Shown in pieces: positions 5,080 through 18,527 of a DNA stretch of 19,084 nucleotides. Position 1 is the stretch's first letter, and every line of letters begins with the position of its first letter. A program made the position numbers and the translations under genes. The notes beneath the pieces were generated by a model. It ran no database searches and was not told where the DNA came from. It saw only the letters and a program-made list of their open reading frames with translations. Source of the stretch: a virus. Lineage: Duplodnaviria > Heunggongvirae > Uroviricota > Caudoviricetes. The DNA lies in the IMG/VR virus record IMGVR_UViG_2609459794_000003; one strand, written 5' to 3'.

Positions 5080-5370
5080 TTAGTGATTCAGGCCGTTACC
5101 GCGTCCGTCGAGAAAAACTTCCACGAGCAAATCACGGGTATAAGTGCGCTCGATGCCGCGATGCAGATAAAGCCGTCCGCGTAAATTAGCTGATGCAGTC
5201 CAGGTACCATCTTTGTGTTTGACCAGCATTCCTGGCATGACCGCACCTCGATTAACGGTCTGCGTTCCATAATGTTGATGAACCATAAAAACTCCTGCCC
5301 GTAAGCTGGGCTGCTGAACATATAGAGACTTCTGCGCGTATTCAGGCGGTGGATGGCCGCCGGTTGTCAT
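5080..5370 (-). CDS. hypothetical protein in the kil/cIII position (96 aa); coding status uncertain
   Basis: Only sizeable ORF between pL and gam; GC-rich, moderate RBS (GAGG about 11 nt upstream). An alternative 77-aa frame (5088..5321) exists, so this call is weak. Confidence 0.35.
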
Positions 5371-5559
5371 AACTAAGCCGCCTCGTTGAAGCGACTAAGG
5401 TATGAAATGTTGAGTTAATTTCAGCTGGTCACACCGACGTTCACGCGTCCGTTTCACCCCTCGCACTCCCCGAAGCCTGCTGAAATTCAAACTGCGGATC
5501 TAAGCGGTCATCGCAACGGTGAATCAGGTAGTTGCCGTATCGTTGTGTTGTTGCGATGA

Positions 5560-5625
5560 ACTTATTTAAAACTATAGTTGTTTTATCGTCAACAACAAAA
5601 GTTGTTTTATTGGTTGTTTTAGATA
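5560..5625 (-). promoter_or_regulatory. putative pL promoter with OL operator half-sites
   Basis: On the minus strand: -35 TTGACG (plus 5587-5592), 17-nt spacer, -10 TTAAAT (plus 5564-5569). It is flanked by repeated GTTGTT / AACAAC motifs and is nearly identical in layout to the pR region. Confidence 0.5.
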
Positions 5626-5727: not shown

Positions 5728-5758
5728 GGGCAAAAGAAAACCCGGCACGGTGACCGGG
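5728..5758 (-). terminator. putative intrinsic terminator downstream of cI
   Basis: On the minus strand: CCCGG-ucaccgug-CCGGG followed by TTTTCTTTTG, about 120 nt downstream of the cI stop. Confidence 0.5.
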
Positions 5759-5879: not shown

Positions 5880-6569
5880 CTACCCATGCTTCCTATATGT
5901 CTGCGGCATGCTCCCAATAACCTTACCGAAGATGAACACCCGGTTCATCTCGTCTTTCTCGATCGGGTCCCACGGTGAGTAGCTTTTGTTATCAGAGATG
6001 ACCAGCAGCTTATCCTTCATCATTTGCAGGCGCTTTACATGGGCTGTGTCGTCGTACAGAAACGCATAGATACCATCACCGTCGAAAGATTTAACTGTGA
6101 TATCAACGAACAGCAGATCACCTGGTTCGATCGTTCCTGACATGCTGTCACCACGCACGTTAATGATGCGGATATTTTCCGCCTTCCTACCATCGAACAT
6201 GTGACGAGCATCGTCAAACGAGTACTCAACCGAGCGTAGAACTTCTACAAACTCACGGTTGATGACTCCCGGCCCAGCACTGACTTCTATATCAAGAACG
6301 TCAATCTTGAAGTATTTGGAATGGCTGACAGTTGATTGTATTGGTTGCACTGTACTGTCTGACATATTTCCAACGCCAGAAGATAACCATTCTGCGCGCA
6401 CACCCAAAGCGTTCGCGATCTCCACGATTTTAGTTGTTTGATTAGCTTTCCCTGTTTCGATTTTCTGAATAGCAGCCTGGCTAACCCCGACCAAATCCCC
6501 AAGCGCCTTTTGTGTAAGGCCTCGCGCTAATCTGGCTTCTTTAAGTCTTTCTGAGAGTGTTGTTTTCAT
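5880..6569 (-). CDS. cI: CI-type prophage repressor (N-terminal HTH plus C-terminal S24 LexA-like autopeptidase)
   Basis: HTH LTQKALGDLVGVSQAAIQKIETGK; Ala-Gly cleavage-site candidate (EVSAGPG); catalytic Ser in VRGDSMSGT and Lys in AHVKRL. The start is taken at MKTTLSERL (ATG 6567-6569); the listed ORF extends 22 codons further upstream. Confidence 0.9.
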   Translation of the reverse strand: MKTTLSERLKEARLARGLTQKALGDLVGVSQAAIQKIETGKANQTTKIVEIANALGVRAEWLSSGVGNMSDSTVQPIQSTVSHSKYFKIDVLDIEVSAGPGVINREFVEVLRSVEYSFDDARHMFDGRKAENIRIINVRGDSMSGTIEPGDLLFVDITVKSFDGDGIYAFLYDDTAHVKRLQMMKDKLLVISDNKSYSPWDPIEKDEMNRVFIFGKVIGSMPQTYRKHG

Positions 6570-6580
6570 ATTCCAAATGT

Positions 6581-6672
6581 ACAACCAAGGTTTTATTCCA
6601 TCAAACGAAAATGGTTGTTGACTAAAAACAACCATAGTTTTAATCTTGATTCAAATTAACCACGGAGGTTGT
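6581..6672 (+). promoter_or_regulatory. pR promoter and OR operator region (divergent cI/cro control)
   Basis: -35 TTGACT (6618-6623), 17-nt spacer, -10 TAATCT (6641-6646). The perfect 9-7-9 palindrome ATGGTTGTT-GACTAAA-AACAACCAT (6611-6635) overlaps the -35; further GGTTGTT / ACAACC half-sites sit at about 6581-6587 and 6666-6672. Confidence 0.6.
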
Positions 6673-6673
6673 T

Positions 6674-6904
6674 ATGAACCCAGCTATCAAAACAGCGATC
6701 AATATCGTTGGTTCACAAAAGAAACTGGGCGCTGCTTGCGAAGTTTCACAGCAGGCCGTCTATAAGTGGCTTCACAACAAAGCAAAGGTATCCCCTGAAC
6801 ATGTCGGCAGCATTGTTACGGCTACTGGTGGAGTAGTGAAGGCATACCAGATTCGCCCGGATCTTCCGAAGTTGTTTCCACACACCGAAAAGAACGCAGC
6901 TTAA
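6674..6904 (+). CDS. cro: Cro-like HTH repressor
   Basis: 76-aa ORF divergent from cI with HTH GSQKKLGAACEVSQQAVYKW and GGAGG RBS at 6664-6668. Confidence 0.8.
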   Translation: MNPAIKTAINIVGSQKKLGAACEVSQQAVYKWLHNKAKVSPEHVGSIVTATGGVVKAYQIRPDLPKLFPHTEKNAA

Positions 6905-6916
6905 ATTTCCATTTCA

Positions 6917-6929
6917 CGCTCTTTAACAA
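6917..6929 (+). promoter_or_regulatory. boxA-like antitermination element (nutR position)
   Basis: CGCTCTTTAACAA immediately downstream of cro closely matches the rrn/lambdoid boxA consensus (GCTCTTTAACAA). No convincing boxB hairpin follows. Confidence 0.45.
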
Positions 6930-6973
6930 TAAGCAATCAACTTAACAGTCAATTCAAACTAAAGGAGTCAATT

Positions 6974-7513
6974 ATGCAACCACTTACATACCAACAGACT
7001 AGCGGATTTAGCCCGACTGCGGTGATAAATCGTTCTCAAACAAAACAGGTGCCAGGCCACGAAAAAATCCGTGATGCCGTCCGCGCCTGGTCGGCTGTAG
7101 ATAATCAGGATGTCGTTGCCACACTCATTGTGAATGAGTATCGGGAGCAGGGCGGCGGCACCATCGATTTCCCTGATGATGTCAGCCGTGCACGCCAGAA
7201 GCTGTTCCGCTTCCTCGATAACAAATTCGATTCTGAAAAATACCGAAATAACGTGCGTGAACTGACCCCGGCAATTCTGGCGGTACTACCGCTGGAATAT
7301 CGCGGTTACCTGGTTGAGCAGGATAGCTTCATGGCTAGGTTGGCTGAAATGGAAAAGGAACTCAGTGAGGCAAAACAGGCTGTCATTCTCAACGCACCAC
7401 GCCACCAGAAACTGAAGGAAATTAGTGAAGGTATTGTGTCGATGTTTCGTGTGGACCCAGATCTGGCTGGTCCATTGATGGCGATGGTTACTACCATGCT
7501 GGGGGCGATATGA
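6974..7513 (+). CDS. YdaT-like protein in the cII position
   Basis: 179-aa ORF with AAGGAG RBS. Motifs EYREQGGG and LTPAILAVLPLEYR resemble the Rac prophage YdaT family as recalled. Confidence 0.55.
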   Translation: MQPLTYQQTSGFSPTAVINRSQTKQVPGHEKIRDAVRAWSAVDNQDVVATLIVNEYREQGGGTIDFPDDVSRARQKLFRFLDNKFDSEKYRNNVRELTPAILAVLPLEYRGYLVEQDSFMARLAEMEKELSEAKQAVILNAPRHQKLKEISEGIVSMFRVDPDLAGPLMAMVTTMLGAI

Positions 7514-7599
7514 CAGGTTCAGAAATGGCGAAAGCCGGTCTGCTGGAACAGAACCGACTTTCAGGTGCAAATCGTAACACACTCATTGCGGGAGGAATT

Positions 7600-8529
7600 A
7601 TGGCAAACACTGCTGAGATATTCAATTTTCCAGTGCCGGATGCGGCACAAAAGGAGCCGCGCGTGGCAGATCTCGATGATGGTTATACGCGCATTGCAAA
7701 TGAGTTGCTGGAAGCTGTGATGCTGGCCGGATTAACACAGCACCAGCTTCTGGTCTTCCTGGCTGTCATGCGCAAAACATATGGCTTTAATAAAAAACTG
7801 GATTGGGTGAGCAACGAGCAACTGTCCGAATTGACCGGGATATTGCCGCACAAGTGTTCTGCTGCAAAAAGTGTTCTGGTAAAGCGTGGGATTTTGATTC
7901 AGAGCGGGCGGAATATCGGTATTAATAATGTGGTCAGTGAATGGTCAACATTACCCGAATCAGGTAAGAAAAATAAAGTTTACCTGAAAGAGGTAAATAT
8001 ACCTGAATCAGGTAAGAAAAGTTTACCCAAATCAGGTAAAGGCGTTTACCCGAATCAGGTAAACACAAAAGACAAACTAACAAAAGACAATATAAAACCT
8101 TTTTCGTCCGAGAATTCTGGCGAATCCTCTGACCAGCCAGAAAACGATCTTCCTGTGGTGAAACCGGATGCTGCAATTCAGAGCGGCAGCAAGTGGGGGA
8201 CAGCAGAAGACCTGACCGCCGCAGAGTGGATGTTTGACATGGTGAAGACTATCGCACCATCAGCCAGAAAACCGAATTTTGCTGGGTGGGCTAACGATAT
8301 CCGCCTGATGCGTGAACGTGACGGACGTAACCACCGCGACATGTGCGTGCTGTTCCGCTGGGCATGCCAGGACAACTTCTGGTCCGGTAACGTGCTAAGT
8401 CCGGCCAAACTCCGCGACAAGTGGACCCAACTCGAAATTAACCGTAACAAGCAACAGGCAGGCGTGATAGCCAGCAAACCAAAACTCGACCTGACAAACA
8501 CAGACTGGATTTACGGGGTGGATCTATGA
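7600..8529 (+). CDS. O: replication initiator O (lambda-O-like; divergent N-terminal iteron-binding domain, lambda-like C-terminus)
   Basis: GGAGG RBS at 7591-7595, then MANTAEIFNF...RVADLDDGYTRIANELLEAV...; C-terminus ...KPKLDLTNTDWIYGVDL as in lambda O. The listed ORF starts 30 codons upstream at 7510. Confidence 0.9.
   Translation: MANTAEIFNFPVPDAAQKEPRVADLDDGYTRIANELLEAVMLAGLTQHQLLVFLAVMRKTYGFNKKLDWVSNEQLSELTGILPHKCSAAKSVLVKRGILIQSGRNIGINNVVSEWSTLPESGKKNKVYLKEVNIPESGKKSLPKSGKGVYPNQVNTKDKLTKDNIKPFSSENSGESSDQPENDLPVVKPDAAIQSGSKWGTAEDLTAAEWMFDMVKTIAPSARKPNFAGWANDIRLMRERDGRNHRDMCVLFRWACQDNFWSGNVLSPAKLRDKWTQLEINRNKQQAGVIASKPKLDLTNTDWIYGVDL
7951..8105. repeat. origin of replication: four palindromic iterons plus an AT-rich segment inside the O gene
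   Basis: Direct repeats ACC(C/T)(G/A)AATCAGGTAA at 7951-7968, 7999-8016, 8022-8040 and 8045-8064, each an internal palindrome (ACCTGA-A-TCAGGT), with a degenerate copy at 7979-7996. They are followed by the A-rich tract ACACAAAAGACAAACTAACAAAAGACAATATAAAACC. Confidence 0.75.
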
Positions 8530-9227
8530 AAAACATCGCCGCACAGATGGTTAACTTTGACCGTGAGCAGATGCGTCGGATCGCCAACAACATGCCGGAA
8601 AAGTACGACGAAAAGCCGCAGGTACAGCAGGTAGCGCAGATCATCAACGGTGTGTTCAGCCAGTTACTGGCAACTTTCCCGGCGAGCCTGGCTAACCGGG
8701 ACCAGAACGAACTGAACGAAATCCGCCGCCAGTGGGTTCTGGCTTTCCGGGAAAACGGGATCACCACGATGGAACAGGTTAACGCAGGAATGCGCGTAGC
8801 CCGTCGGCAGAATCGACCATTCCTGCCATCACCCGGGCAGTTTGTTGCCTGGTGCCGGGAAGAAGCATCCGTTACCGCCGGGCTGCCAAACGCCAGCGAG
8901 CTGGTTGATATGGTTTACGAGTATTGCCGGAAACGTGGCCTGTATCCGGATGCAGAGTCTTATCCGTGGAAATCAAACGCGCACTACTGGCTGGTTACCA
9001 ACCTGTATCAGAACATGCGGGCCAATGCGCTGACTGATGCGGAATTACGGCGCAAGGCTGCCGATGAACTGGCCTGTATGACAGCGCGAATTAACCGTGA
9101 TGAGGCGATACCTGAACCAGTAAAACAACTTCCTGTCATGGGCGGTAGACCTCTAAATCGTGCACAGGCTCTGGCGAAGATCGCAGAAATCAAAGCTAAG
9201 TTTGGGCTGAAAGGAGCAAGTGTATGA
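8526..9227 (+). CDS. P: replication protein P (DnaB helicase loader), lambda-type
   Basis: 233-aa ORF MKNIAAQMVNFDREQMRRIANNMPEKYDEKPQVQQVAQIINGVFSQLLATF... matching lambda P as recalled; its start overlaps the O stop. Confidence 0.95.
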   Translation: MKNIAAQMVNFDREQMRRIANNMPEKYDEKPQVQQVAQIINGVFSQLLATFPASLANRDQNELNEIRRQWVLAFRENGITTMEQVNAGMRVARRQNRPFLPSPGQFVAWCREEASVTAGLPNASELVDMVYEYCRKRGLYPDAESYPWKSNAHYWLVTNLYQNMRANALTDAELRRKAADELACMTARINRDEAIPEPVKQLPVMGGRPLNRAQALAKIAEIKAKFGLKGASV

Positions 9228-9526
9228 CGGGCAAAGAGGCAATTATTCATTACCTGGGGACGCATAAGAGCTTCTGTGCACAGGACGTTGCCGCGGTAAC
9301 AGGCGCAACCGTAACCAGCATAAATCAGGCTGCGGCTAAAATGGCGCGGGCAGGAATCCTGGTCGTTGATGGTAAGGTCTGGCGAACGGTGTATTACCGG
9401 TTCGCTACCAGAGAAGAACGGGAAGGAAAGGTGAGCACGAATCTGATTTTTAAGGAGTGTCGCCAGAGTGCCGCGATGAAACGGGTATTGAGGGTATATA
9501 AAAGAACATCAATGGGTACACAATGA
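9224..9526 (+). CDS. ren: Ren-like protein (Rex-exclusion resistance), C-terminus divergent
   Basis: MTGKEAIIHYLGTHKSFCAQDVAAVTGATVTSINQAAAKMARAGILVVDGKVWRTVYYRFATREEREGK... matches lambda Ren as recalled; the last ~10 residues differ where the low-GC island begins. Confidence 0.8.
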   Translation: MTGKEAIIHYLGTHKSFCAQDVAAVTGATVTSINQAAAKMARAGILVVDGKVWRTVYYRFATREEREGKVSTNLIFKECRQSAAMKRVLRVYKRTSMGTQ

Positions 9527-9593
9527 TGAAACAGGTGAGTTGAGTTCAAACTGTAGTACAATTCTCTCCAGTTTGAACAGGAAAGAATATGCT

Positions 9594-9926
9594 ATGAACC
9601 CTTATATTTATCTTGGTGGTGCAATACTTGCAGAGGTCATTGGTACAACCTTAATGAAGTTTTCAGAAGGTTTTACACGGTTATGGCCATCTGTTGGTAC
9701 AATTATTTGTTATTGTGCATCATTCTGGTTATTAGCTCAGACGCTGGCTTATATTCCTACAGGGATTGCTTATGCTATCTGGTCAGGAGTCGGTATTGTC
9801 CTGATTAGCTTACTGTCATGGGGACTTTTCGGCCAACGGCTGGACCTGCCAGCCATTATAGGCATGATGTTGATTTGTGCCGGTGTGTTGGTTATTAATT
9901 TATTGTCACGAAGCACACCACATTAA
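9594..9926 (+). CDS. emrE: small multidrug resistance (SMR) efflux transporter EmrE
   Basis: 110-aa, 4-TM ORF MNPYIYLGGAILAEVIGTTLMKFSEGFTRLWPSVGTIICYCASFWLLAQTLAYIPTGIAYAIWSG... with the conserved membrane-embedded Glu in the first helix (AEVIGT). Confidence 0.95.
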   Translation: MNPYIYLGGAILAEVIGTTLMKFSEGFTRLWPSVGTIICYCASFWLLAQTLAYIPTGIAYAIWSGVGIVLISLLSWGLFGQRLDLPAIIGMMLICAGVLVINLLSRSTPH

Positions 9927-9956
9927 AATAATTTGTTTCTAAACGACTAAAATATG

Positions 9957-9996
9957 GAGGCTCTTATATTTATATGAGCCTCGTTTTATGCTTTTT
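9957..9996 (+). terminator. putative terminator after emrE
   Basis: GAGGCTC-ttatatttatat-GAGCCTC (7-bp stem) followed by GTTTTATGCTTTTT. Confidence 0.5.
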
Positions 9997-10180
9997 GTTA
10001 ATGTCTTTATTTTTTATGTATTCTTTTGTGCTTTCAAGATTATGGCGTAAGAAAATTGCAATACGATTATTGTTGTATATTCAAGATAATGTGACCTTAA
10101 TTGTCTTTTTAAATAAAAATTAAACAAAAATTATATCCCACCACTAAGGTTTATAAAAGCATACGTTAGCAGGTGTCACC

Positions 10181-11707
10181 ATGAAAAAAGCCATAGCATA
10201 TATGCGATTTTCATCACCAGGTCAGATGTCTGGTGACTCATTAAACCGACAGAGAAGACTTATTGCTGAATGGTTAAAGGTAAATAGTGATTATTATCTT
10301 GATACCATAACATATGAAGATTTAGGATTAAGTGCATTCAAAGGAAAGCATGCACAATCAGGAGCTTTTTCGGAATTTTTAGATGCTATAGAGCATGGTT
10401 ATATATTGCCAGGAACTACATTGTTAGTTGAAAGTCTGGACAGACTTTCAAGAGAAAAAGTCGGTGAAGCGATTGAACGTCTGAAATTGATTTTGAATCA
10501 CGGTATTGATGTTATAACTCTTTGCGACAATACAGTCTATAATATTGACTCTTTGAATGAGCCATATTCATTAATAAAAGCCATACTTATAGCACAAAGG
10601 GCAAATGAAGAAAGCGAGATAAAGTCAAGTCGGGTTAAATTATCATGGAAGAAAAAACGGCAGGATGCACTGGAATCAGGTACGATTATGACGGCGTCTT
10701 GTCCGAGATGGCTCTCCTTAGATGACAAAAGAACGGCTTTTGTTCCAGACCCCGACAGGGTGAAAACTATTGAGCTAATTTTTAAACTCAGGATGGAAAG
10801 GCGCTCATTGAATGCAATAGCCAAGTATTTAAATGATCATGCTGTAAAGAATTTCTCAGGAAAAGAAAGTGCATGGGGACCTTCTGTAATTGAAAAATTA
10901 TTAGCGAATAAAGCTCTGATAGGTATATGCGTACCTTCATATCGTGCAAGAGGGAAAGGGATAAGTGAAATCGCTGGCTATTATCCCAGAGTCATATCAG
11001 ATGATTTGTTTTACGCTGTACAGGAAATTCGGTTGGCACCTTTTGGTATTAGCAATAGTAGCAAGAATCCTATGCTAATAAATCTACTTCGAACAGTTAT
11101 GAAGTGTGAGGCTTGTGGTAATACCATGATTGTTCATGCGGTATCTGGAAGTTTGCATGGCTATTATGTTTGTCCGATGAGAAGATTACATCGATGTGAC
11201 AGGCCATCAATAAAAAGAGATTTGGTTGATTATAATATCATTAATGAATTGCTTTTTAATTGTAGCAAAATTCAACCAGTTGAAAACAAGAAAGATGCTA
11301 ATGAAACTTTAGAGTTAAAAATTATTGAGCTTCAGATGAAAATTAATAATTTAATCGTTGCATTGTCTGTCGCGCCTGAAGTTACCGCTATAGCAGAGAA
11401 AATAAGACTATTAGATAAGGAATTACGAAGGGCTTCGGTATCATTGAAAACTTTGAAGAGTAAAGGTGTAAATTCATTCAGTGATTTTTATGCTATTGAC
11501 TTAACCAGTAAAAATGGACGAGAGTTATGCCGTACACTTGCCTATAAAACATTCGAAAAAATCATAATTAATACGGATAATAAAACCTGTGATATCTATT
11601 TTATGAATGGCATTGTTTTTAAACACTATCCTTTAATGAAAGTAATATCCGCCCAGCAGGCGATAAGTGCTCTCAAATATATGGTTGATGGTGAGATTTA
11701 TTTCTAA
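10181..11707 (+). CDS. ybcK: large serine recombinase (resolvase/invertase catalytic domain, recombinase domain, zinc ribbon)
   Basis: 508-aa ORF with N-terminal serine-recombinase motif (AIAYMRFSSPGQ...SLNRQ), Cys cluster CEACGN...YYVCPMRRLHRCD and a C-terminal coiled-coil-like region. Low-GC gene. Confidence 0.9.
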   Translation: MKKAIAYMRFSSPGQMSGDSLNRQRRLIAEWLKVNSDYYLDTITYEDLGLSAFKGKHAQSGAFSEFLDAIEHGYILPGTTLLVESLDRLSREKVGEAIERLKLILNHGIDVITLCDNTVYNIDSLNEPYSLIKAILIAQRANEESEIKSSRVKLSWKKKRQDALESGTIMTASCPRWLSLDDKRTAFVPDPDRVKTIELIFKLRMERRSLNAIAKYLNDHAVKNFSGKESAWGPSVIEKLLANKALIGICVPSYRARGKGISEIAGYYPRVISDDLFYAVQEIRLAPFGISNSSKNPMLINLLRTVMKCEACGNTMIVHAVSGSLHGYYVCPMRRLHRCDRPSIKRDLVDYNIINELLFNCSKIQPVENKKDANETLELKIIELQMKINNLIVALSVAPEVTAIAEKIRLLDKELRRASVSLKTLKSKGVNSFSDFYAIDLTSKNGRELCRTLAYKTFEKIIINTDNKTCDIYFMNGIVFKHYPLMKVISAQQAISALKYMVDGEIYF

Positions 11708-12171
11708 ATAATGATCTCGGATTTTAAGTTATGCTATGGTGATAAAGTGCAAGACAGAATTAATTATCTTTGACGAAACTTAATGGGTAATTACTTTGTT
11801 TGCTCCCACAAGCGAGTTTTGTACGGCTGTATTGGGGTAGTAAATGAGCTATACAATCTTAATCATTTGTTAGGTGAGAACTCTTGGTCGCAGATTCAAA
11901 TACTGAAAATACGTGACAAATTATTATGAGCAAAATGGTGTATGTCACGTATTTTGAATGGTAGGTTAAAAAATAACACCGACTTTCGTAGGTATTACTA
12001 ATAATAAAGCAGAGTTTTTAGATAGTATCAATGTGCTTTGTGTATATTGTGGCAAATAATTGGGTTGGGGGTACAATTGTGATTGCTTTTGCATAAACAT
12101 TGCGCCTTTATGCATAATGAGATAAAGGAATATCAAATAAAATAACGATAGGTCATAACAAAGAGGTTTTT

Positions 12172-12723
12172 ATGAAAACACTTATCGTTTCAACTGTATT
12201 GGCATTCATAACATTTTCTGCGCAGGCTGCAGCATTTCAGGTCACTAGTAATGAAATAAAAACAGGAGAGCAACTTACAACGTCTCATGTCTTTTCTGGA
12301 TTTGGGTGTGAAGGTGGTAATACATCGCCCTCATTAACCTGGTCTGGTGTTCCTGAAGGTACCAAAAGCTTTGCCGTAACTGTATATGATCCAGATGCAC
12401 CTACAGGCAGTGGTTGGTGGCATTGGACTGTTGTTAATATTCCAGCAACAATAACATATTTGCCCGTTGATGCAGGGAGACGTGATGGAACAAAACTGCC
12501 GACTGGTGCTGTTCAAGGCCGAAATGATTTTGGCTATGCTGGGTTTGGTGGCGCATGTCCTCCTAAAGGAGATAAACCACATCATTACCAGTTTAAAGTA
12601 TGGGCTCTAAAAACTGAAAAGATTCCTGTAGATTCTAACTCCAGCGGAGCGTTAGTTGGTTATATGCTTAATGCTAATAAAATCGCAACCGCTGAGATAA
12701 CACCAGTTTATGAGATAAAGTAG
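12172..12723 (+). CDS. ybcL: secreted PEBP/RKIP-family protein (YbcL-like)
   Basis: 183-aa ORF with signal peptide MKTLIVSTVLAFITFSAQAAA and PEBP-type motifs (YDPDAP, GxHHY). Confidence 0.85.
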   Translation: MKTLIVSTVLAFITFSAQAAAFQVTSNEIKTGEQLTTSHVFSGFGCEGGNTSPSLTWSGVPEGTKSFAVTVYDPDAPTGSGWWHWTVVNIPATITYLPVDAGRRDGTKLPTGAVQGRNDFGYAGFGGACPPKGDKPHHYQFKVWALKTEKIPVDSNSSGALVGYMLNANKIATAEITPVYEIK

Positions 12724-12732
12724 GGTGAGAGT

Positions 12733-13530
12733 ATGCTGGCAAGAGGTAAGACTAACTTAAAGATCGAAGAAATACGGATGCATAAACATCATGAGATTCA
12801 TAGGGTTAAGCCTCTTATGCCAGCTTTGTGTCGTATCCGTCAGGGAAAGAAAGTTATCAATTGGGAGACGCATACTTTAACTGTTGATAATAATCAAATA
12901 ATATTATTTCCTTGTGGTTATGAATTTTATATTGAGAATTATCCTGAAGCAGGGCTTTATCTTGCAGAAATGCTTTACTTACCCATTGATTTAATTGAGA
13001 GTTTCCAAAAACTTTATACGGTAACTGATCAAATACGTAACAAAACAAGTTTCTTTTTACCTCAGAATCCTGAGTTAATATATTGTTGGGAGCAACTAAA
13101 AACATCTGTTTCCCGAGGCTTCTCAACTAAAATTCAGGAGCACTTAGCAATGGGCGTTCTACTTTCGTTAGGAGTGAATCATGTTAATCATTTACTTTTA
13201 TCATATAGTAAACAATCATTGATAAGTCGTTGTTATAACCTGCTGCTATCCGAACCCGGCACAAAATGGACAGCAAACAAGGTTGCTCGATATCTCTACA
13301 TTTCTGTTTCTACATTACATCGCCGTCTAGCAAGCGAGGGGGTAAGTTTCCAAAGTATACTGGACGATGTGAGGTTAAATAATGCGTTGTCTGCTATACA
13401 AACGACGGTAAAACCTATAAGCGAGATTGCCAGAGAAAATGGTTATAAGTGTCCTTCTCGTTTTACTGAAAGATTTCATAATCGTTTTAATATAACACCA
13501 AGAGAGATAAGAAAAGCTTCCAGAGAGTAA
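12733..13530 (+). CDS. ybcM: AraC/XylS-family transcriptional regulator (YbcM-like)
   Basis: 265-aa ORF with C-terminal AraC-type double HTH (...[40 protein letters not shown]...[30 protein letters not shown]...). Confidence 0.8.
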
Positions 13531-13646
13531 AAGTGTTTTAAGAAGGAGCAATTCTATCGATTTTGATTTTGGGAAATCAACACGGCATAATTATGTCACC
13601 GGAGCCTGAACAACTCCGGTGACTTCTGCGCTAAACGGGGACGTTT

Positions 13647-13748
13647 ATGCGCACATACAATCCAAACTCTCTTCTCCCTTCACAGATGCAGAAATGCACC
13701 TGCAATTCTTTGCATCTAGCGTTTGACCTCTGCGGAGGTGAAGCGTGA
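13647..13748 (+). CDS. ylcH: possible 33-aa small protein (YlcH-like)
   Basis: ATG at 13647 to TGA at 13746-13748 encodes [33 protein letters not shown]; its stop overlaps the ybcN GTG start. The assignment rests on position and length only. Confidence 0.35.
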
Positions 13749-14200
13749 ACCTCTCACAAGACGGCATCAAATTACATCGCGGCAACTTCACCGCTATCGG
13801 TCGGCAGATCCAGCCTTATCTGGAGGAGGGCAAATGCTTTCGCATGGTGCTTAAACCGTGGCGTGAGAAACGCAGTCTTTCCCAGAATGCACTCAGCCAC
13901 ATGTGGTACAGCGAAATCAGTGAATACCTCATCAGCAGGGGTAAAACGTTCGCCACTCCAGCTTGGGTAAAAGATGCTCTCAAACACACATATCTCGGTT
14001 ATGAAACCAAAGACCTGGTTGATGTCGTAACCGGTGATATCACCACTATCCAGTCGTTACGCCATACCTCCGATCTTGATACCGGAGAGATGTATGTCTT
14101 CCTGTGTAAGGTTGAAGCCTGGGCGGTGAATATTGGCTGCCACCTGACTATTCCGCAGAGCTGCGAGTTCCAGCTGCTCCGCGACAAGCAGGAGGCGTAA
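13745..14200 (+). CDS. ybcN: NinB-family protein (YbcN-like)
   Basis: 151-aa ORF with GTG start; nin-region position upstream of ninE; sequence matches DLP12 YbcN as recalled. Confidence 0.8.
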
Positions 14201-14370
14201 TGGCTACACCGCTTATTCGTGTCATGAACGGACACATCTACAGAGTATCAAATCGTCGTAAGCGTAAGCCTGAGCTGAAGCCATCCGAAATACCAACACT
14301 GCTCGGATATACCGCTAGCCTGGTTGATAAAAAATGGTTGCGACTGGCAGCAAGGAGGAATCATGGCTGA
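14200..14370 (+). CDS. ninE: NinE-like small protein
   Basis: 56-aa [59 protein letters not shown]; its ATG overlaps the ybcN stop (TAATG). Below the ORF-track cutoff. Confidence 0.7.
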   Translation: MATPLIRVMNGHIYRVSNRRKRKPELKPSEIPTLLGYTASLVDKKWLRLAARRNHG

Positions 14371-14653
14371 TTTGAGAAAAGCAGCGCGTGGTCGGGAATG
14401 CCAGGTAAGAATCCCTGGCGTATGTAATGGCAATTCTGAAACGTCTGTACTGGCACATATCCGGCTGGCTGGATTGTGCGGTACCGGTATCAAACCGCCA
14501 GACCTGATTGCCACCATTGCATGTTCTGCCTGCCACGACGAAATCGACCGCCGCACACATTTTGTCGATGCTGCATATGCAAAAGAATGCGCGCTGGAAG
14601 GTATGGCGAGAACACAGGTTATCTGGCTGAAAGAGGGGGTTATTAAGGCGTGA
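14363..14653 (+). CDS. ybcO: YbcO-like nin-region protein (Cys-rich, putative nuclease)
   Basis: 96-aa [45 protein letters not shown]...CSACHDEID; GGAGG RBS at 14354-14358. Confidence 0.8.
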
Positions 14654-15012
14654 ATACCTACAGTATCACATTACCCTGGCCTCCGAGCAATAATCGCTAT
14701 TACCGCCATAATCGCGGGCGCACGCACGTCAGTGCAGAGGGGCAGGCATACCGCGATAACGTCGCCCGAATCATTAAAAACGCAATGCTGGATATCGGCC
14801 TGGCTATGCCTGTGAAAATCCGCATTGAGTGCCACATGCCGGATCGCCGTAGCCGTGACCTGGATAATCTGCAAAAAGCCGCTTTTGACGCACTCACTAA
14901 AGCAGGTTTCTGGCTGGATGATGCTCAGGTCGTTGATTACCGCGTTGTGAAGATGCCTGTTACCAAAGGTGGGAGGCTGGAACTGACCATCACCGAAATG
15001 GGGAATGAATGA
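14650..15012 (+). CDS. rusA: RusA Holliday-junction resolvase
   Basis: 120-aa [53 protein letters not shown]...[15 protein letters not shown]... matching RusA as recalled; GTG start overlapping the ybcO stop. Confidence 0.95.
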
Positions 15013-15149
15013 TGTTTGAGTTTAATATGGCAGAACTTCTTCGCCACCGCTGGGGGCGTCTGCGCTTATATCGTTTCCCCGGCTCTGTTTTGACCGATTA
15101 CCGAATACTGAAGAATTACGCCAAAACACTGACAGGAGCAGGAGTATGA
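15009..15149 (+). CDS. ylcG: YlcG-like small protein (46 aa)
   Basis: [46 protein letters not shown]; its start overlaps the rusA stop. Below the ORF-track cutoff. Confidence 0.55.
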
Positions 15150-15234
15150 AGTCAGAGATAACAATCAACTAATACTGTTTTGTTGATTTTTGCTTGTAAT
15201 TGGCGTTCTGGTCTGAGTTTTGTGGAGTAAGTTG

Positions 15235-15612
15235 ATGCGTGATATTCAGATGGTTCTTGAGCGTTGGGGAGCGTGGGCGGCTAATAATCATGAAGATGTG
15301 ACCTGGTCGTCCATTGCCGCCGGTTTTAAGGGATTAATTCCTTCAAAAGTAAAATCTCGCCCGCAATGTTGTGACGATGACGCGATGATCATTTGCGGGT
15401 GCATGGCCCGTCTGAAAAAGAACAACAGCGATTTGCATGATTTATTGGTGGACTATTATGTCGGCGGCATGACTTTTATGGCGCTTGCACGTAAGCATGG
15501 GCGATCTGATTGTTGGGTTGGCAGGATGCTCCAGAAAGCTGAGGGCGTAGTGGAGGGTATGCTGATGGTGTTGGATCTCCGATTGGAGATGGATGCTGAT
15601 TGTTCAAAATAA
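15235..15612 (+). CDS. quuD: late-gene antiterminator Q (QuuD / phage 82/21 type)
   Basis: [62 protein letters not shown]...; Cys-rich zinc-binding region; located immediately upstream of a terminator, as for Q/qut/tR'. Confidence 0.85.
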
Positions 15613-15711
15613 TTAAAGGAAAAGTTGCTGTCTGATTCTCATTAGTCTAACATTTTAAATGTTGGAATCGCAACGTAGTTATTATCATATAACAGCTTGT
15701 TTCCTGATTTA

Positions 15712-15740
15712 GCCAGCCTCCCCAAAGGCTGGTTTTTTTC
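15712..15740 (+). terminator. tR'-like intrinsic terminator downstream of Q, preceded by a putative late promoter region
   Basis: CCAGCC-tccccaaa-GGCTGG followed by TTTTTTT. Candidate PR' upstream: TTGCTG (15625-15630), 17-nt spacer, TAACAT (15648-15653). Confidence 0.6.
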
Positions 15741-17786: not shown

Positions 17787-18527
17787 GTGGATAATATGCC
17801 ATACATATGTTCTATCATTTTGGTGTTGAACTCGTTTGATGTCCGAATTGGTAAAGAAGATATTTTGTTTAAAAAAGGAAGTGCTGTTCTCATTGATTAC
17901 AATTTAAAAGATTTTTTTTCATCAAATATAGATCATGTAATGATCGTAGATGTTGAAGAGAAAACAGTTAATGATTTCTTTAAAAGCAACACACTCTCAC
18001 CTTTTTCTGTAAGAAGGTTTTATCCGGCATACTTGATGGTGGAATGTGAAGATTTTTCATTGTTAAAGAACTTGATTGCATGCTTGAATTGTGATGGCAG
18101 AACTGTGGATTTTGTTAGAAATCAAATATCACTTGCATGTCTTGCTATCTTATCTTCAGAGAAAATAGTGCAAAGTTTTTTATTTGGATGTCTTAATAGT
18201 TTAGGAAGTAAAGTTAAGGCTATTATTCACACGGATATATCTGCAGCATGGAGACTTTGTGATATATCTTCAAGACTGTATCTGAGTGAAAGTCTGTTAA
18301 AAAGAAAATTAAAGCACGAAGGCTTATCATTTAGTAAGTTAATTCTTGAAGAGCGAATGGTGATGGCGGAAAGGTTATTAAGCTACAATTTATATTCTGT
18401 TGGAAAAGTTGCTGAGATATGCGGTTATGAAAACACGTCATATTTTGTAAGTGTTTTCAGAAGATATTTTGGTGTTCCTCCCCATCAATATTCATCAAGA
18501 CTTTTTTTAGAAAAAGACATGATGTAA
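17787..18527 (+). CDS. AraC-family regulator, AppY/GadX-like
   Basis: 246-aa low-GC ORF with C-terminal AraC HTH (WRLCDISSRLYLSESLLKRKLKHEGLSFSKLILEERMVMAERLL...VGKVAEICGYENTSYFVSVFRRYFGVPPHQY); N-terminus resembles AppY-type regulators. AT-rich upstream region. Confidence 0.8.
   Translation: MDNMPYICSIILVLNSFDVRIGKEDILFKKGSAVLIDYNLKDFFSSNIDHVMIVDVEEKTVNDFFKSNTLSPFSVRRFYPAYLMVECEDFSLLKNLIACLNCDGRTVDFVRNQISLACLAILSSEKIVQSFLFGCLNSLGSKVKAIIHTDISAAWRLCDISSRLYLSESLLKRKLKHEGLSFSKLILEERMVMAERLLSYNLYSVGKVAEICGYENTSYFVSVFRRYFGVPPHQYSSRLFLEKDMM

Follow-up and report, generated by a model that had tools for sequence, protein, structure and literature searches.

A consensus rrn-type boxA at the nutR position of a lambdoid prophage early region without boxB, nutL or N

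We analyzed a 19,084-nt (nucleotide) stretch of DNA from the IMG/VR virus record IMGVR_UViG_2609459794_000003, hereafter the window, with respect to a boxA element that lies between a cro-type and a cII-type gene. Gene identification with Pfam and phrog places the window in the early region of a lambdoid prophage. Rightward from the immunity region, the cro-type gene is followed by a short intergenic region, a YdaT-family gene, O, P, ren, the nin region and Q; leftward, the order is pL, a leader, kil, gam, bet and exo. YdaT has been described as an analogue of CII (PMC8630535, PMC9986795), and we refer to its gene here as cII. In its immunity region, the window shares 99.9% identity with the isolated phage PhiR34_1, and its close relatives are classified in Bievrevirus. 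Locus comparison placed the mosaic junctions at the cII ATG, suggesting that cro and the intergenic region, boxA included, move as one module.

The rrn boxA has the sequence TGCTCTTTAACAA. In the window, the 13-mer CGCTCTTTAACAA downstream of cro is the sole exact match to the rrn/nut pattern YGCTCTTTAACAA in the 19,084 bases. Base composition predicts approximately 0.0016 such matches per window on both strands and approximately 2e-6 on the sense strand of the cro-cII intergenic region. The core of the element (6918-6928) also matches GYTCTTTAANA, the functional NusB:NusE boxA consensus of Baniulyte et al. (PMC5725501), for which approximately 0.13 chance matches per window are expected, and the element fits the lambda-type nut boxA consensus CGCTCTT(T)A as well. 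The boxA begins 12 nt 3′ of the cro stop and is separated by 44 nt (45 nt for its core) from the cII-like ATG (6974); the cII Shine-Dalgarno sequence, AAGGAG, lies approximately 30 nt 3′ of the boxA. According to the GenBank records, the nutR boxA starts 7 nt after the cro stop in lambda and 6 nt after it in P22, and the position of the window boxA relative to cro and cII matches both. The 13-mer is a true boxA of consensus sequence, placed as in nutR. The first-pass annotation, made from the sequence without database searches, had described it as near-consensus and rrn-type, and the exact, unique match and the comparable offsets in lambda and P22 bear this out.

A second match to GYTCTTTAANA, the suhB form GTTCTTTAACA, occurs at 18061-18071 on the minus strand, antisense within an AraC-family gene (17787-18527), and is probably due to chance. 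Chance matches to such a short motif thus do happen, but for the boxA itself a chance origin is effectively refuted, both by the small number of 13-mer matches expected and by the presence of the element at the same place in homologous loci. We also scanned IMG/VR with CGCTCTTTAACAAC for other boxA-only sites. The matches were a mix of nut-like sites with hairpins and chance matches inside large open reading frames (ORFs), and their contexts could not be classified reliably.

Neither a boxB hairpin nor an N gene accompanies the boxA, as the first-pass annotation had also reported, and the near-identical, viable phage PhiR34_1 likewise has no N gene, nutL or boxB. RNA spanning 6900-6990 folds with a minimum free energy of -4.1 kcal/mol, no better than shuffled sequence (z = -0.01), and the upstream side (6790-6935) gives z = +0.70. 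No inverted repeat beyond AAATTT surrounds the boxA, and no Rfam family was found in the cro-cII region. The first gene after pL, in the usual place of N, is a kil homologue. None of the early-region ORFs matched an N-like family in Pfam or phrog (including phrog_271), and five tblastn queries (lambda N, phi80 'N' and N proteins from three relatives) returned nothing from the window, nor from a 1.29-Mb set of related loci that includes the complete PhiR34_1 genome. As a positive control, the same queries recovered lambda N and P22 gp24 together with the relatives' own N genes. Between pL and kil there is no boxA-like sequence that could represent nutL. Of the 120 IMG/VR contigs in which this boxA and its 3′ flank occur, none carries an N-like gene in the preceding 6 kb (0/120), and 99/120 have the same leader and kil.

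The pL leader (5371-5555, minus strand) is common to phages of both cro types described below. This leader has a high G+C content and moderate structure (z = -1.7), occurs only once in the window and, beyond its first hairpin, is unlike the leaders of phi80 and HK639. It contains an arginine-rich ORF of 31 codons (5395-5490, minus strand; TTG start) that reads ...RLRGVRGVKRTRERR... and shares the reading frame of kil in Perceval and W4, both of which have CAG in place of the TAG of the window and PhiR5_1. We considered this ORF as a substitute for N and rejected it, as it has no family match and is closed by the TAG stop in the window. The phi80 'N' (phrog_25091) was likewise rejected as an N counterpart, since it lacks an arginine-rich N-terminus and is absent from the window. 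The small RNA KilS of Rac has no real similarity to the leader, and the ydaS-ydaT gap of Rac (22 nt) is too short for a boxA.

The origin of the element is indicated by 11 cro homologues from representative genomes of other Enterobacterales (63-86% amino-acid identity). Canonical nutR sites are present in 5/11 of these loci (Erwinia L088, Xenorhabdus L089, Buttiauxella L091, Photorhabdus L092 and Arsenophonus L094), each with CGCTCTTTAACAA or a variant differing by 1-2 nt, located 6-23 nt after the cro stop and followed by a hairpin. Three of them (L089, L092 and L094) have a nutL across the repressor as well, with the same boxA and a boxB in which the loop is kept and the stem carries compensatory changes. 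N-like proteins that cross-match lambda N and P22 gp24 are encoded in L091, L092 and L094 (phrog_271, E = 8e-6 to 5e-18), and L089 has a C-terminal piece of such a protein where the locus is cut off. Among the cro relatives, the closest three (Kosakonia, Klebsiella grimontii and Enterobacter quasiroggenkampii) have no boxA (0/3), and in two of them a phi80-type GC hairpin spans the cro stop.

As boxA and boxB occupy the same place next to the cro homologues, the window boxA appears to be inherited from a complete N/nut system whose partners are gone. The comparison shows the window boxA to be homologous, judged by sequence and position, to the boxA of complete nut sites, and the element is best read as a nutR that kept boxA and lost boxB, nutL and N, the simplest account of its origin and one that the first-pass annotation did not offer. 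On this comparison, the cro/immunity module descends from an N-dependent lambdoid ancestor with a boxA-boxB nutR, a matching nutL and an arginine-rich N; N and nutL are absent from the E. coli lineage of the window, which has a Bievrevirus / phi80 / HK639-like backbone.

Additional sites were noted in these relatives. In the Serratia locus L087, which also has window-like operators, the nutR position downstream of the homologous cro is taken by CGCTTAATAACA, apparently a decayed boxA. The pL leaders of phi80 type carry a boxA or boxA-like sequence, TGCTTTTTAACAA in phi80 and L086 and CGCTCTTTAACAA in Serratia L087 (sites at L002 1060-1090, minus strand; L087 1158-1170, minus strand; and in L086), and conserved hairpins come after it, with stems that vary in a compensatory manner (CACG-TAAA-CGTG versus TGCG/CGCA around a CAAA loop). 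Arsenophonus L094 has two near-identical nutR-like boxA+boxB copies 1.6 kb apart (3235, 4839) and an extra N-like fragment, which suggests a local duplication.

Turning to E. coli, a 40-nt segment spanning the boxA is present in 1515 of 5426 complete genomes and is identical in 1505 of the 1515. This immunity type is therefore present in ~28% of complete E. coli genomes and is extremely common. A minority allele (W4-type, 47 E. coli genomes) contains 12 extra bases, reading CAAC-TTAACAGACTGA-TTAACAGTC, and with them a 5-bp hairpin (GACUG-AUUAA-CAGUC) 18 nt 3′ of the boxA. A diverged W4-type sublineage keeps the stem around an AUGAA loop and has the boxA CGTTCTTTAACAA, which is of the suhB form and still consensus. 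The sole boxA substitution among the E. coli alleles is a C-to-T change at the consensus Y, which gives this suhB form, GTTCTTTAACA.

The W4-type alleles read TTAACAG-ACTGA-TTAACAG; the window equals this sequence minus one 7-nt repeat and the 5-nt spacer, and it has no 5′ arm of the W4-type hairpin. Such a difference is the signature of a slippage deletion, and an insertion that created both a direct and an inverted repeat would be less parsimonious. Most likely, a 12-nt slippage deletion between the 7-nt direct repeats removed the hairpin position, a direction of change that we infer from the alleles. The spacer between cro and cII appears prone to slippage in other ways too, with a 19-nt tandem duplication of AGTCAATTCAAACTAAAGG in at least four genomes and a 1-nt deletion beside the Shine-Dalgarno sequence. 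These spacer polymorphisms are seen in loci L341 (2809-2823), L390 and L391.

The label boxB is unjustified for the W4-type hairpin: it is not repeated near pL, it lacks an N-like partner, and no nut-like context was found for it elsewhere, IMG/VR included. A scan with GACTGATTAACAGTC for a partner returned only five cognate loci and unrelated matches, and the W4 intergenic region folds with z = -1.3. A non-canonical partner element, which the first-pass annotation had raised as one possibility, consequently finds little support, as the minority hairpin is without a partner and its 5′ arm is missing in the window.

The boxA is embedded in the strongest stretch of Rho utilisation (rut)-like composition between pR and Q. 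Segments of 78 nt starting at 6869-6886 and 6904-6924 have a C/G ratio of 3.1-3.2, the highest within 6650-15700, and the GC skew is -0.67 at 6900-6959. In its composition (C-rich, G-poor, unstructured), the boxA stretch resembles a typical Rho-utilisation site. The boxA thus lies between cro and cII in a rut-like context, from which Rho termination is predicted, as in lambda nutR; in the lambda GenBank record, rutA and rutB flank nutR. A second rut-like stretch is located at 13641-13734, and the nin region contains untranslated gaps; the operon is otherwise coding. No strong intrinsic terminator is predicted on the plus strand from pR to Q, the first convincing one being tR′ (15711-15734), so that anti-Rho activity alone could suffice. 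With the rrn form of the motif, this context is compatible with the host-factor-only antitermination suggested in the first-pass annotation.

Table 1. Features of the window discussed in the text (positions are those of the whole stretch)
Feature	Position	Strand	Remarks
kil homologue	5080-5370	-	First gene of the pL operon, in the usual place of N; phrog_294, E = 1e-38
Inferred pL and leader	5371-5592	-	TTGACG at 5592-5587; leader of ~190 nt without boxA or boxB
cI-type repressor gene	5880-6570	-	S24/helix-turn-helix
Inferred pR	6618-6646	+	TTGACT, 17 nt, TAATCT; inside operator inverted repeat 6611-6635; read from sequence
cro-type repressor gene	6674-6904	+	YdaS-family helix-turn-helix; divergent from cI; Pfam PF15943, P22_Cro; phrog_35
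rut-like stretch	6869-7001	+	Strongest C>G stretch between pR and Q; embeds boxA; candidate tR1-like Rho entry site
cro-cII intergenic region	6905-6973	+	Unstructured RNA; 8.7% G, 21.7% C
boxA	6917-6929	+	CGCTCTTTAACAA; predicted NusB:NusE(S10) binding site on the pR transcript
Putative deletion scar	6942-6950	+	Single direct repeat TTAACAG (6942-6948) and hairpin 3′ arm CAGTC (6946-6950)
cII-equivalent gene	6974-7513	+	YdaT family; first gene 3′ of boxA; Pfam PF06254, phrog_163
O	7510-8529	+	
P	8526-9227	+	
ren	9224-9526	+	
nin region			DLP12-like; 3′ of ren
Q antiterminator gene	15220-15612	+	

Elsewhere in the window, TTGATT-N6-AATCAA, the YdaT/CII-type operator consensus, is matched exactly only at 13563-13580 (TTGATTTTGGGAAATCAA), between ybcM and ybcN in the nin region. 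Promoter-like hexamers on either strand overlap this match, a 10-bp hairpin (GTCACCGGAG...CTCCGGTGAC; ~13596-13624) comes after it, and the stretch beside it ranks second in C-richness within the operon. This site could be a YdaT-controlled promoter, providing a PaQ-like antisense transcript or a pR-independent route to Q (PMC9986795, PMC11879457). Between cI and pL, a good intrinsic terminator (CCCGGTCACCGTGCCGGG plus a T run; 5741-5758, minus strand) is probably the end of the immunity transcript, and relatives have insertions of various moron or defence-like genes, HipA-like ones among them, immediately before this terminator. At 859-975 on the minus strand, an ALIL pseudoknot (RF01497, 116 bits), a frameshift element of IS3-family insertion sequences, points to an insertion sequence at the left end of the prophage segment.

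We hypothesize that the element is an orphan nutR boxA with modest, host-factor-only anti-Rho activity, a reading drawn from sequence comparison in which our confidence is about even. On the emerging pR transcript, NusB:S10 would bind the boxA, as expected of the high-affinity rrn form of the motif. The rrnG BoxA binds NusB:NusE at 5-8 nM compared to 80-90 nM for the lambda nut BoxA, a roughly ten-fold difference (PMC2800207), and the exact rrn-type match predicts a high affinity for the window boxA. Together with NusA, NusG and SuhB, NusB:S10 would assemble the host rrn-type complex on RNA polymerase, and this complex, sitting on the rut-like tR1 position, would compete with Rho loading and sequester NusG. 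NusB:S10 binding would thus have continued, with the rrn-type complex lowering the action of Rho at the tR1-like site. The outcome would be a modest, N-independent drop in Rho-dependent polarity over cII-O-P...Q, accessory to the operon and not required by it, given that the same operon works without a boxA in sister phages. A boxA can act without a partner in at least one other setting: the 11-bp boxA alone restores distal expression of long arrays of clustered regularly interspaced short palindromic repeats (CRISPR), according to PMC7862264, which cites Stringer et al. 2020.

A more far-reaching version of this idea is that widespread N-less prophages have turned the nut site into an rrn-type control that uses host factors only, a single high-affinity boxA on the tR1-like rut site that would recruit NusB/S10/SuhB and serve either as an anti-Rho shield of the 8.5-kb early-right operon or as a growth-state sensor that tunes cII (YdaT) and lysis-lysogeny. 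We consider this version unlikely; if true, it would be the first natural phage early operon to rely on boxA alone.

Several observations weigh against an active boxA. A natural control is provided by sister phages that have a different, homologous cro (type B), found in 11/80 of the IMG/VR loci with the same cII and in the isolated phages Perceval, D2, 4A7 and PhiR68_2; the type B groups are 4A7, 1W and 3W with D2. At its 3′ end, type B cro forms a GC hairpin across the stop codon and has no boxA; the string closest to a boxA there carries three mismatches, of which one falls on the C at position four. Mutations of boxA that include this position, C4A and C4T/T6C, abolish regulation (PMC5725501). 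Type B phages share the pL leader, kil, cII, O, P, ren and nin of the window, and the downstream operon is the same in PhiR34_1 and PhiR5_1, which have the boxA, and in Perceval and D2, which do not. HK639 and phi80 also have no boxA after cro. Since viable type B phages run the same operon without it, the boxA is dispensable, and it would therefore modulate rather than enable the early-right operon. Polymorphism offers no help to the hypothesis: the intergenic mutational events number approximately 10 outside the boxA and one inside it, at a degenerate position, as neutrality predicts, and E. coli variation is too scarce to separate the readings, so that conservation carries no weight. The direction of the effect also depends on context, as a boxA can promote rather than prevent Rho termination (PMC5725501), and in a translated operon ribosome coupling may already shield the transcript from Rho.

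The GC hairpin at the cro stop is a recurrent feature in its own right. It reads GCCGCC-TAA..-GGCGGC without a T run, occupies the place of the boxA and is present in type B phages, phi80, HK639 and at least two others (L084 and L086), at L217 5020-5042, L216 370-390 and L386 4575-4595 and after cro in L084 and L086.

These observations suit a neutral relic, in which a stranded nut fragment may bind NusB:S10 to no effect and persists because the lineage is young and nearly clonal. We regard this as a possible, somewhat unlikely explanation. The sister phages that manage without a boxA fit it, as does the near-complete identity over 40 nt in E. coli, which leaves little time for decay; so do the instability of the neighbouring sequence (the 12-nt indel, the 19-nt duplication and the 1-nt deletion) and the apparently decayed boxA at the same position in Serratia L087. 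However, a relic does not readily account for a motif that is perfect (13/13) to the high-affinity rrn form, that keeps consensus in its single observed substitution and that lies exactly within the best rut-like stretch of the operon. The boxA has also been kept by the window-type allele and by two sublineages of W4 type, the flanks of which vary at several positions. An active boxA could instead work in the opposite direction, as in suhB: a tethered Nus complex would hinder the ribosome at the cII start and Rho would end the uncoupled RNA, giving a host-physiology-dependent attenuator of cII-O-P, in effect a tR1 without N, that biases lysis-lysogeny. The window boxA matches GYTCTTTAANA less than 50 nt before a start codon, which is the criterion of PMC5725501, and in that study suhB and a ParE-like toxin gene were repressed, with repression persisting at boxA-Shine-Dalgarno spacings of up to 100 nt and a boxA overlapping the rut; the rut-like stretch of the window overlaps both the boxA and the cII start. 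The suhB boxA, however, is at the 5′ end of its transcript, whereas this one follows a translated gene approximately 275 nt from pR. In N-dependent relatives, the same boxA serves antitermination, and the window element was not located in the portion of the PMC5725501 Supplementary Data that was searched. Negative control of this kind therefore seems to us quite improbable.

Two further explanations look beyond a lone boxA. A complete non-canonical nut would need an unrecognised RNA partner, such as a weak UAAG/CUUA stem or the minority hairpin, and an unrecognised antiterminator, for which the 31-codon leader ORF would be an example. This ORF is arginine-rich and in frame with kil in Perceval and W4, and the W4-type hairpin lies 18 nt after the boxA with its stem kept in the AUGAA-loop sublineage. 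Yet the window allele has no hairpin 5′ arm and folds like random sequence, and the hairpin, whose loop is unlike those of lambda or P22 boxB, has neither a second copy near pL nor a nut context in IMG/VR and gives only z = -1.3 for the W4 fold. With the TTG start, missing family match and TAG closure (in the window and PhiR5_1) of the ORF added, we judge a complete non-canonical nut highly improbable. Slimmer still is the prospect that the junction is conserved at the DNA level, for a PRE-like promoter or operators of a YdaT-type CII, and not for an RNA function. YdaT of CP-933P and Rac binds the ydaS-ydaT junction, where PRE lies (PMC9986795, PMC11879457), and half-site-like repeats follow the boxA here (AATCAA at 6935-6940; AGTCAA at 6947-6952 and 6966-6971). 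No good TTGATT-N6-AATCAA is found at the junction, however, the best candidate having three mismatches. The 13-mer is moreover common to N-dependent relatives whose downstream gene is not of YdaT type, so a DNA-level element would cover the flank and not the boxA.

Each of the components is already known: boxA, nut sites, lambdoid phages without N, and orphan boxA elements of cellular genes. In the literature searched, an incomplete collection without the older phi80 papers, we found no account of a nutR reduced to its boxA in a lambdoid phage that lacks N. In lambdoid phages, boxA is usually described as half of a bipartite site that needs boxB and N; here, a common prophage immunity module keeps only the host-factor half, in its strongest (rrn) form, on the apparent main Rho entry site. 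If active, the orphan boxA would tie phage early expression or cII levels directly to host Nus factors and SuhB without a phage antiterminator, and it would add to the few boxA targets known outside ribosomal operons (suhB, some toxin genes and CRISPR leaders). If inert, it would be a clean, dated example of nut decay after the loss of N, with a deletion between 7-nt repeats and a possible decayed boxA in Serratia.

Compared to known systems, the element is closest in position to the nutR of lambda and P22, which likewise has a boxA (CGCTCTTTACCAA in P22 nutR, CGCTCTTTAAC in P22 nutL and CGCTCTTA in lambda) 6-12 nt after the cro stop, upstream of cII and in a Rho-utilisation region. Unlike these sites, it has no boxB, no nutL and no N, and its boxA is the full rrn-type 13-mer, whereas that of lambda is a weaker 8-mer. 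The put phages HK022 and HK639 resemble the window in having no N, and HK639 also in its YdaS-type cro, its YdaT-type cII and the first hairpin of its pL leader. They differ from it in that the window has no put-like two-stem RNA in the cro-cII region and, in its pL leader, no counterpart of the put sequence conserved between HK022 and HK639; in HK639 itself, put-like RNA is found only at pL, and only the GC hairpin over the stop codon follows cro. A put-type RNA (~70 nt, two stems) was considered for the window and rejected, as the intergenic region is unstructured, without similarity to HK639 putL and without an Rfam match; HK022 put was compared by eye.

The rrn leader, whose boxA complex involves NusA, NusB, NusE, NusG, SuhB and S4, carries a G+T-rich boxC stretch. 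The boxA of the window is near-identical to the rrn motif, with C as its first base, and would similarly use host factors only. It lies inside a translated phage mRNA, whereas the rrn boxA stands ahead of a long untranslated RNA, and it has neither an upstream hairpin nor a G+T-rich boxC-like stretch after it. The established activity of the rrn boxA complex is resistance to Rho-dependent termination (PMC6614801, PMC4807359, PMC5725501). The boxA elements of the suhB 5′ untranslated region and of the ParE-like toxin gene (PMC5725501) are alike in being stand-alone GYTCTTTAANA motifs less than 50 nt from a start codon that overlap a pyrimidine-rich, G-poor rut, and the suhB form GTTCTTTAACA itself occurs in one E. 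coli allele of the prophage. Those elements, however, repress the downstream gene and promote Rho termination, and the window boxA is internal to an operon, not at a 5′ end. The CRISPR leader boxA is, like this one, an orphan boxA without a phage protein, and in PMC7862264 it is described as cutting polarity over kilobases; its target there is non-coding RNA, whereas the target of the window boxA would be a protein-coding early operon.

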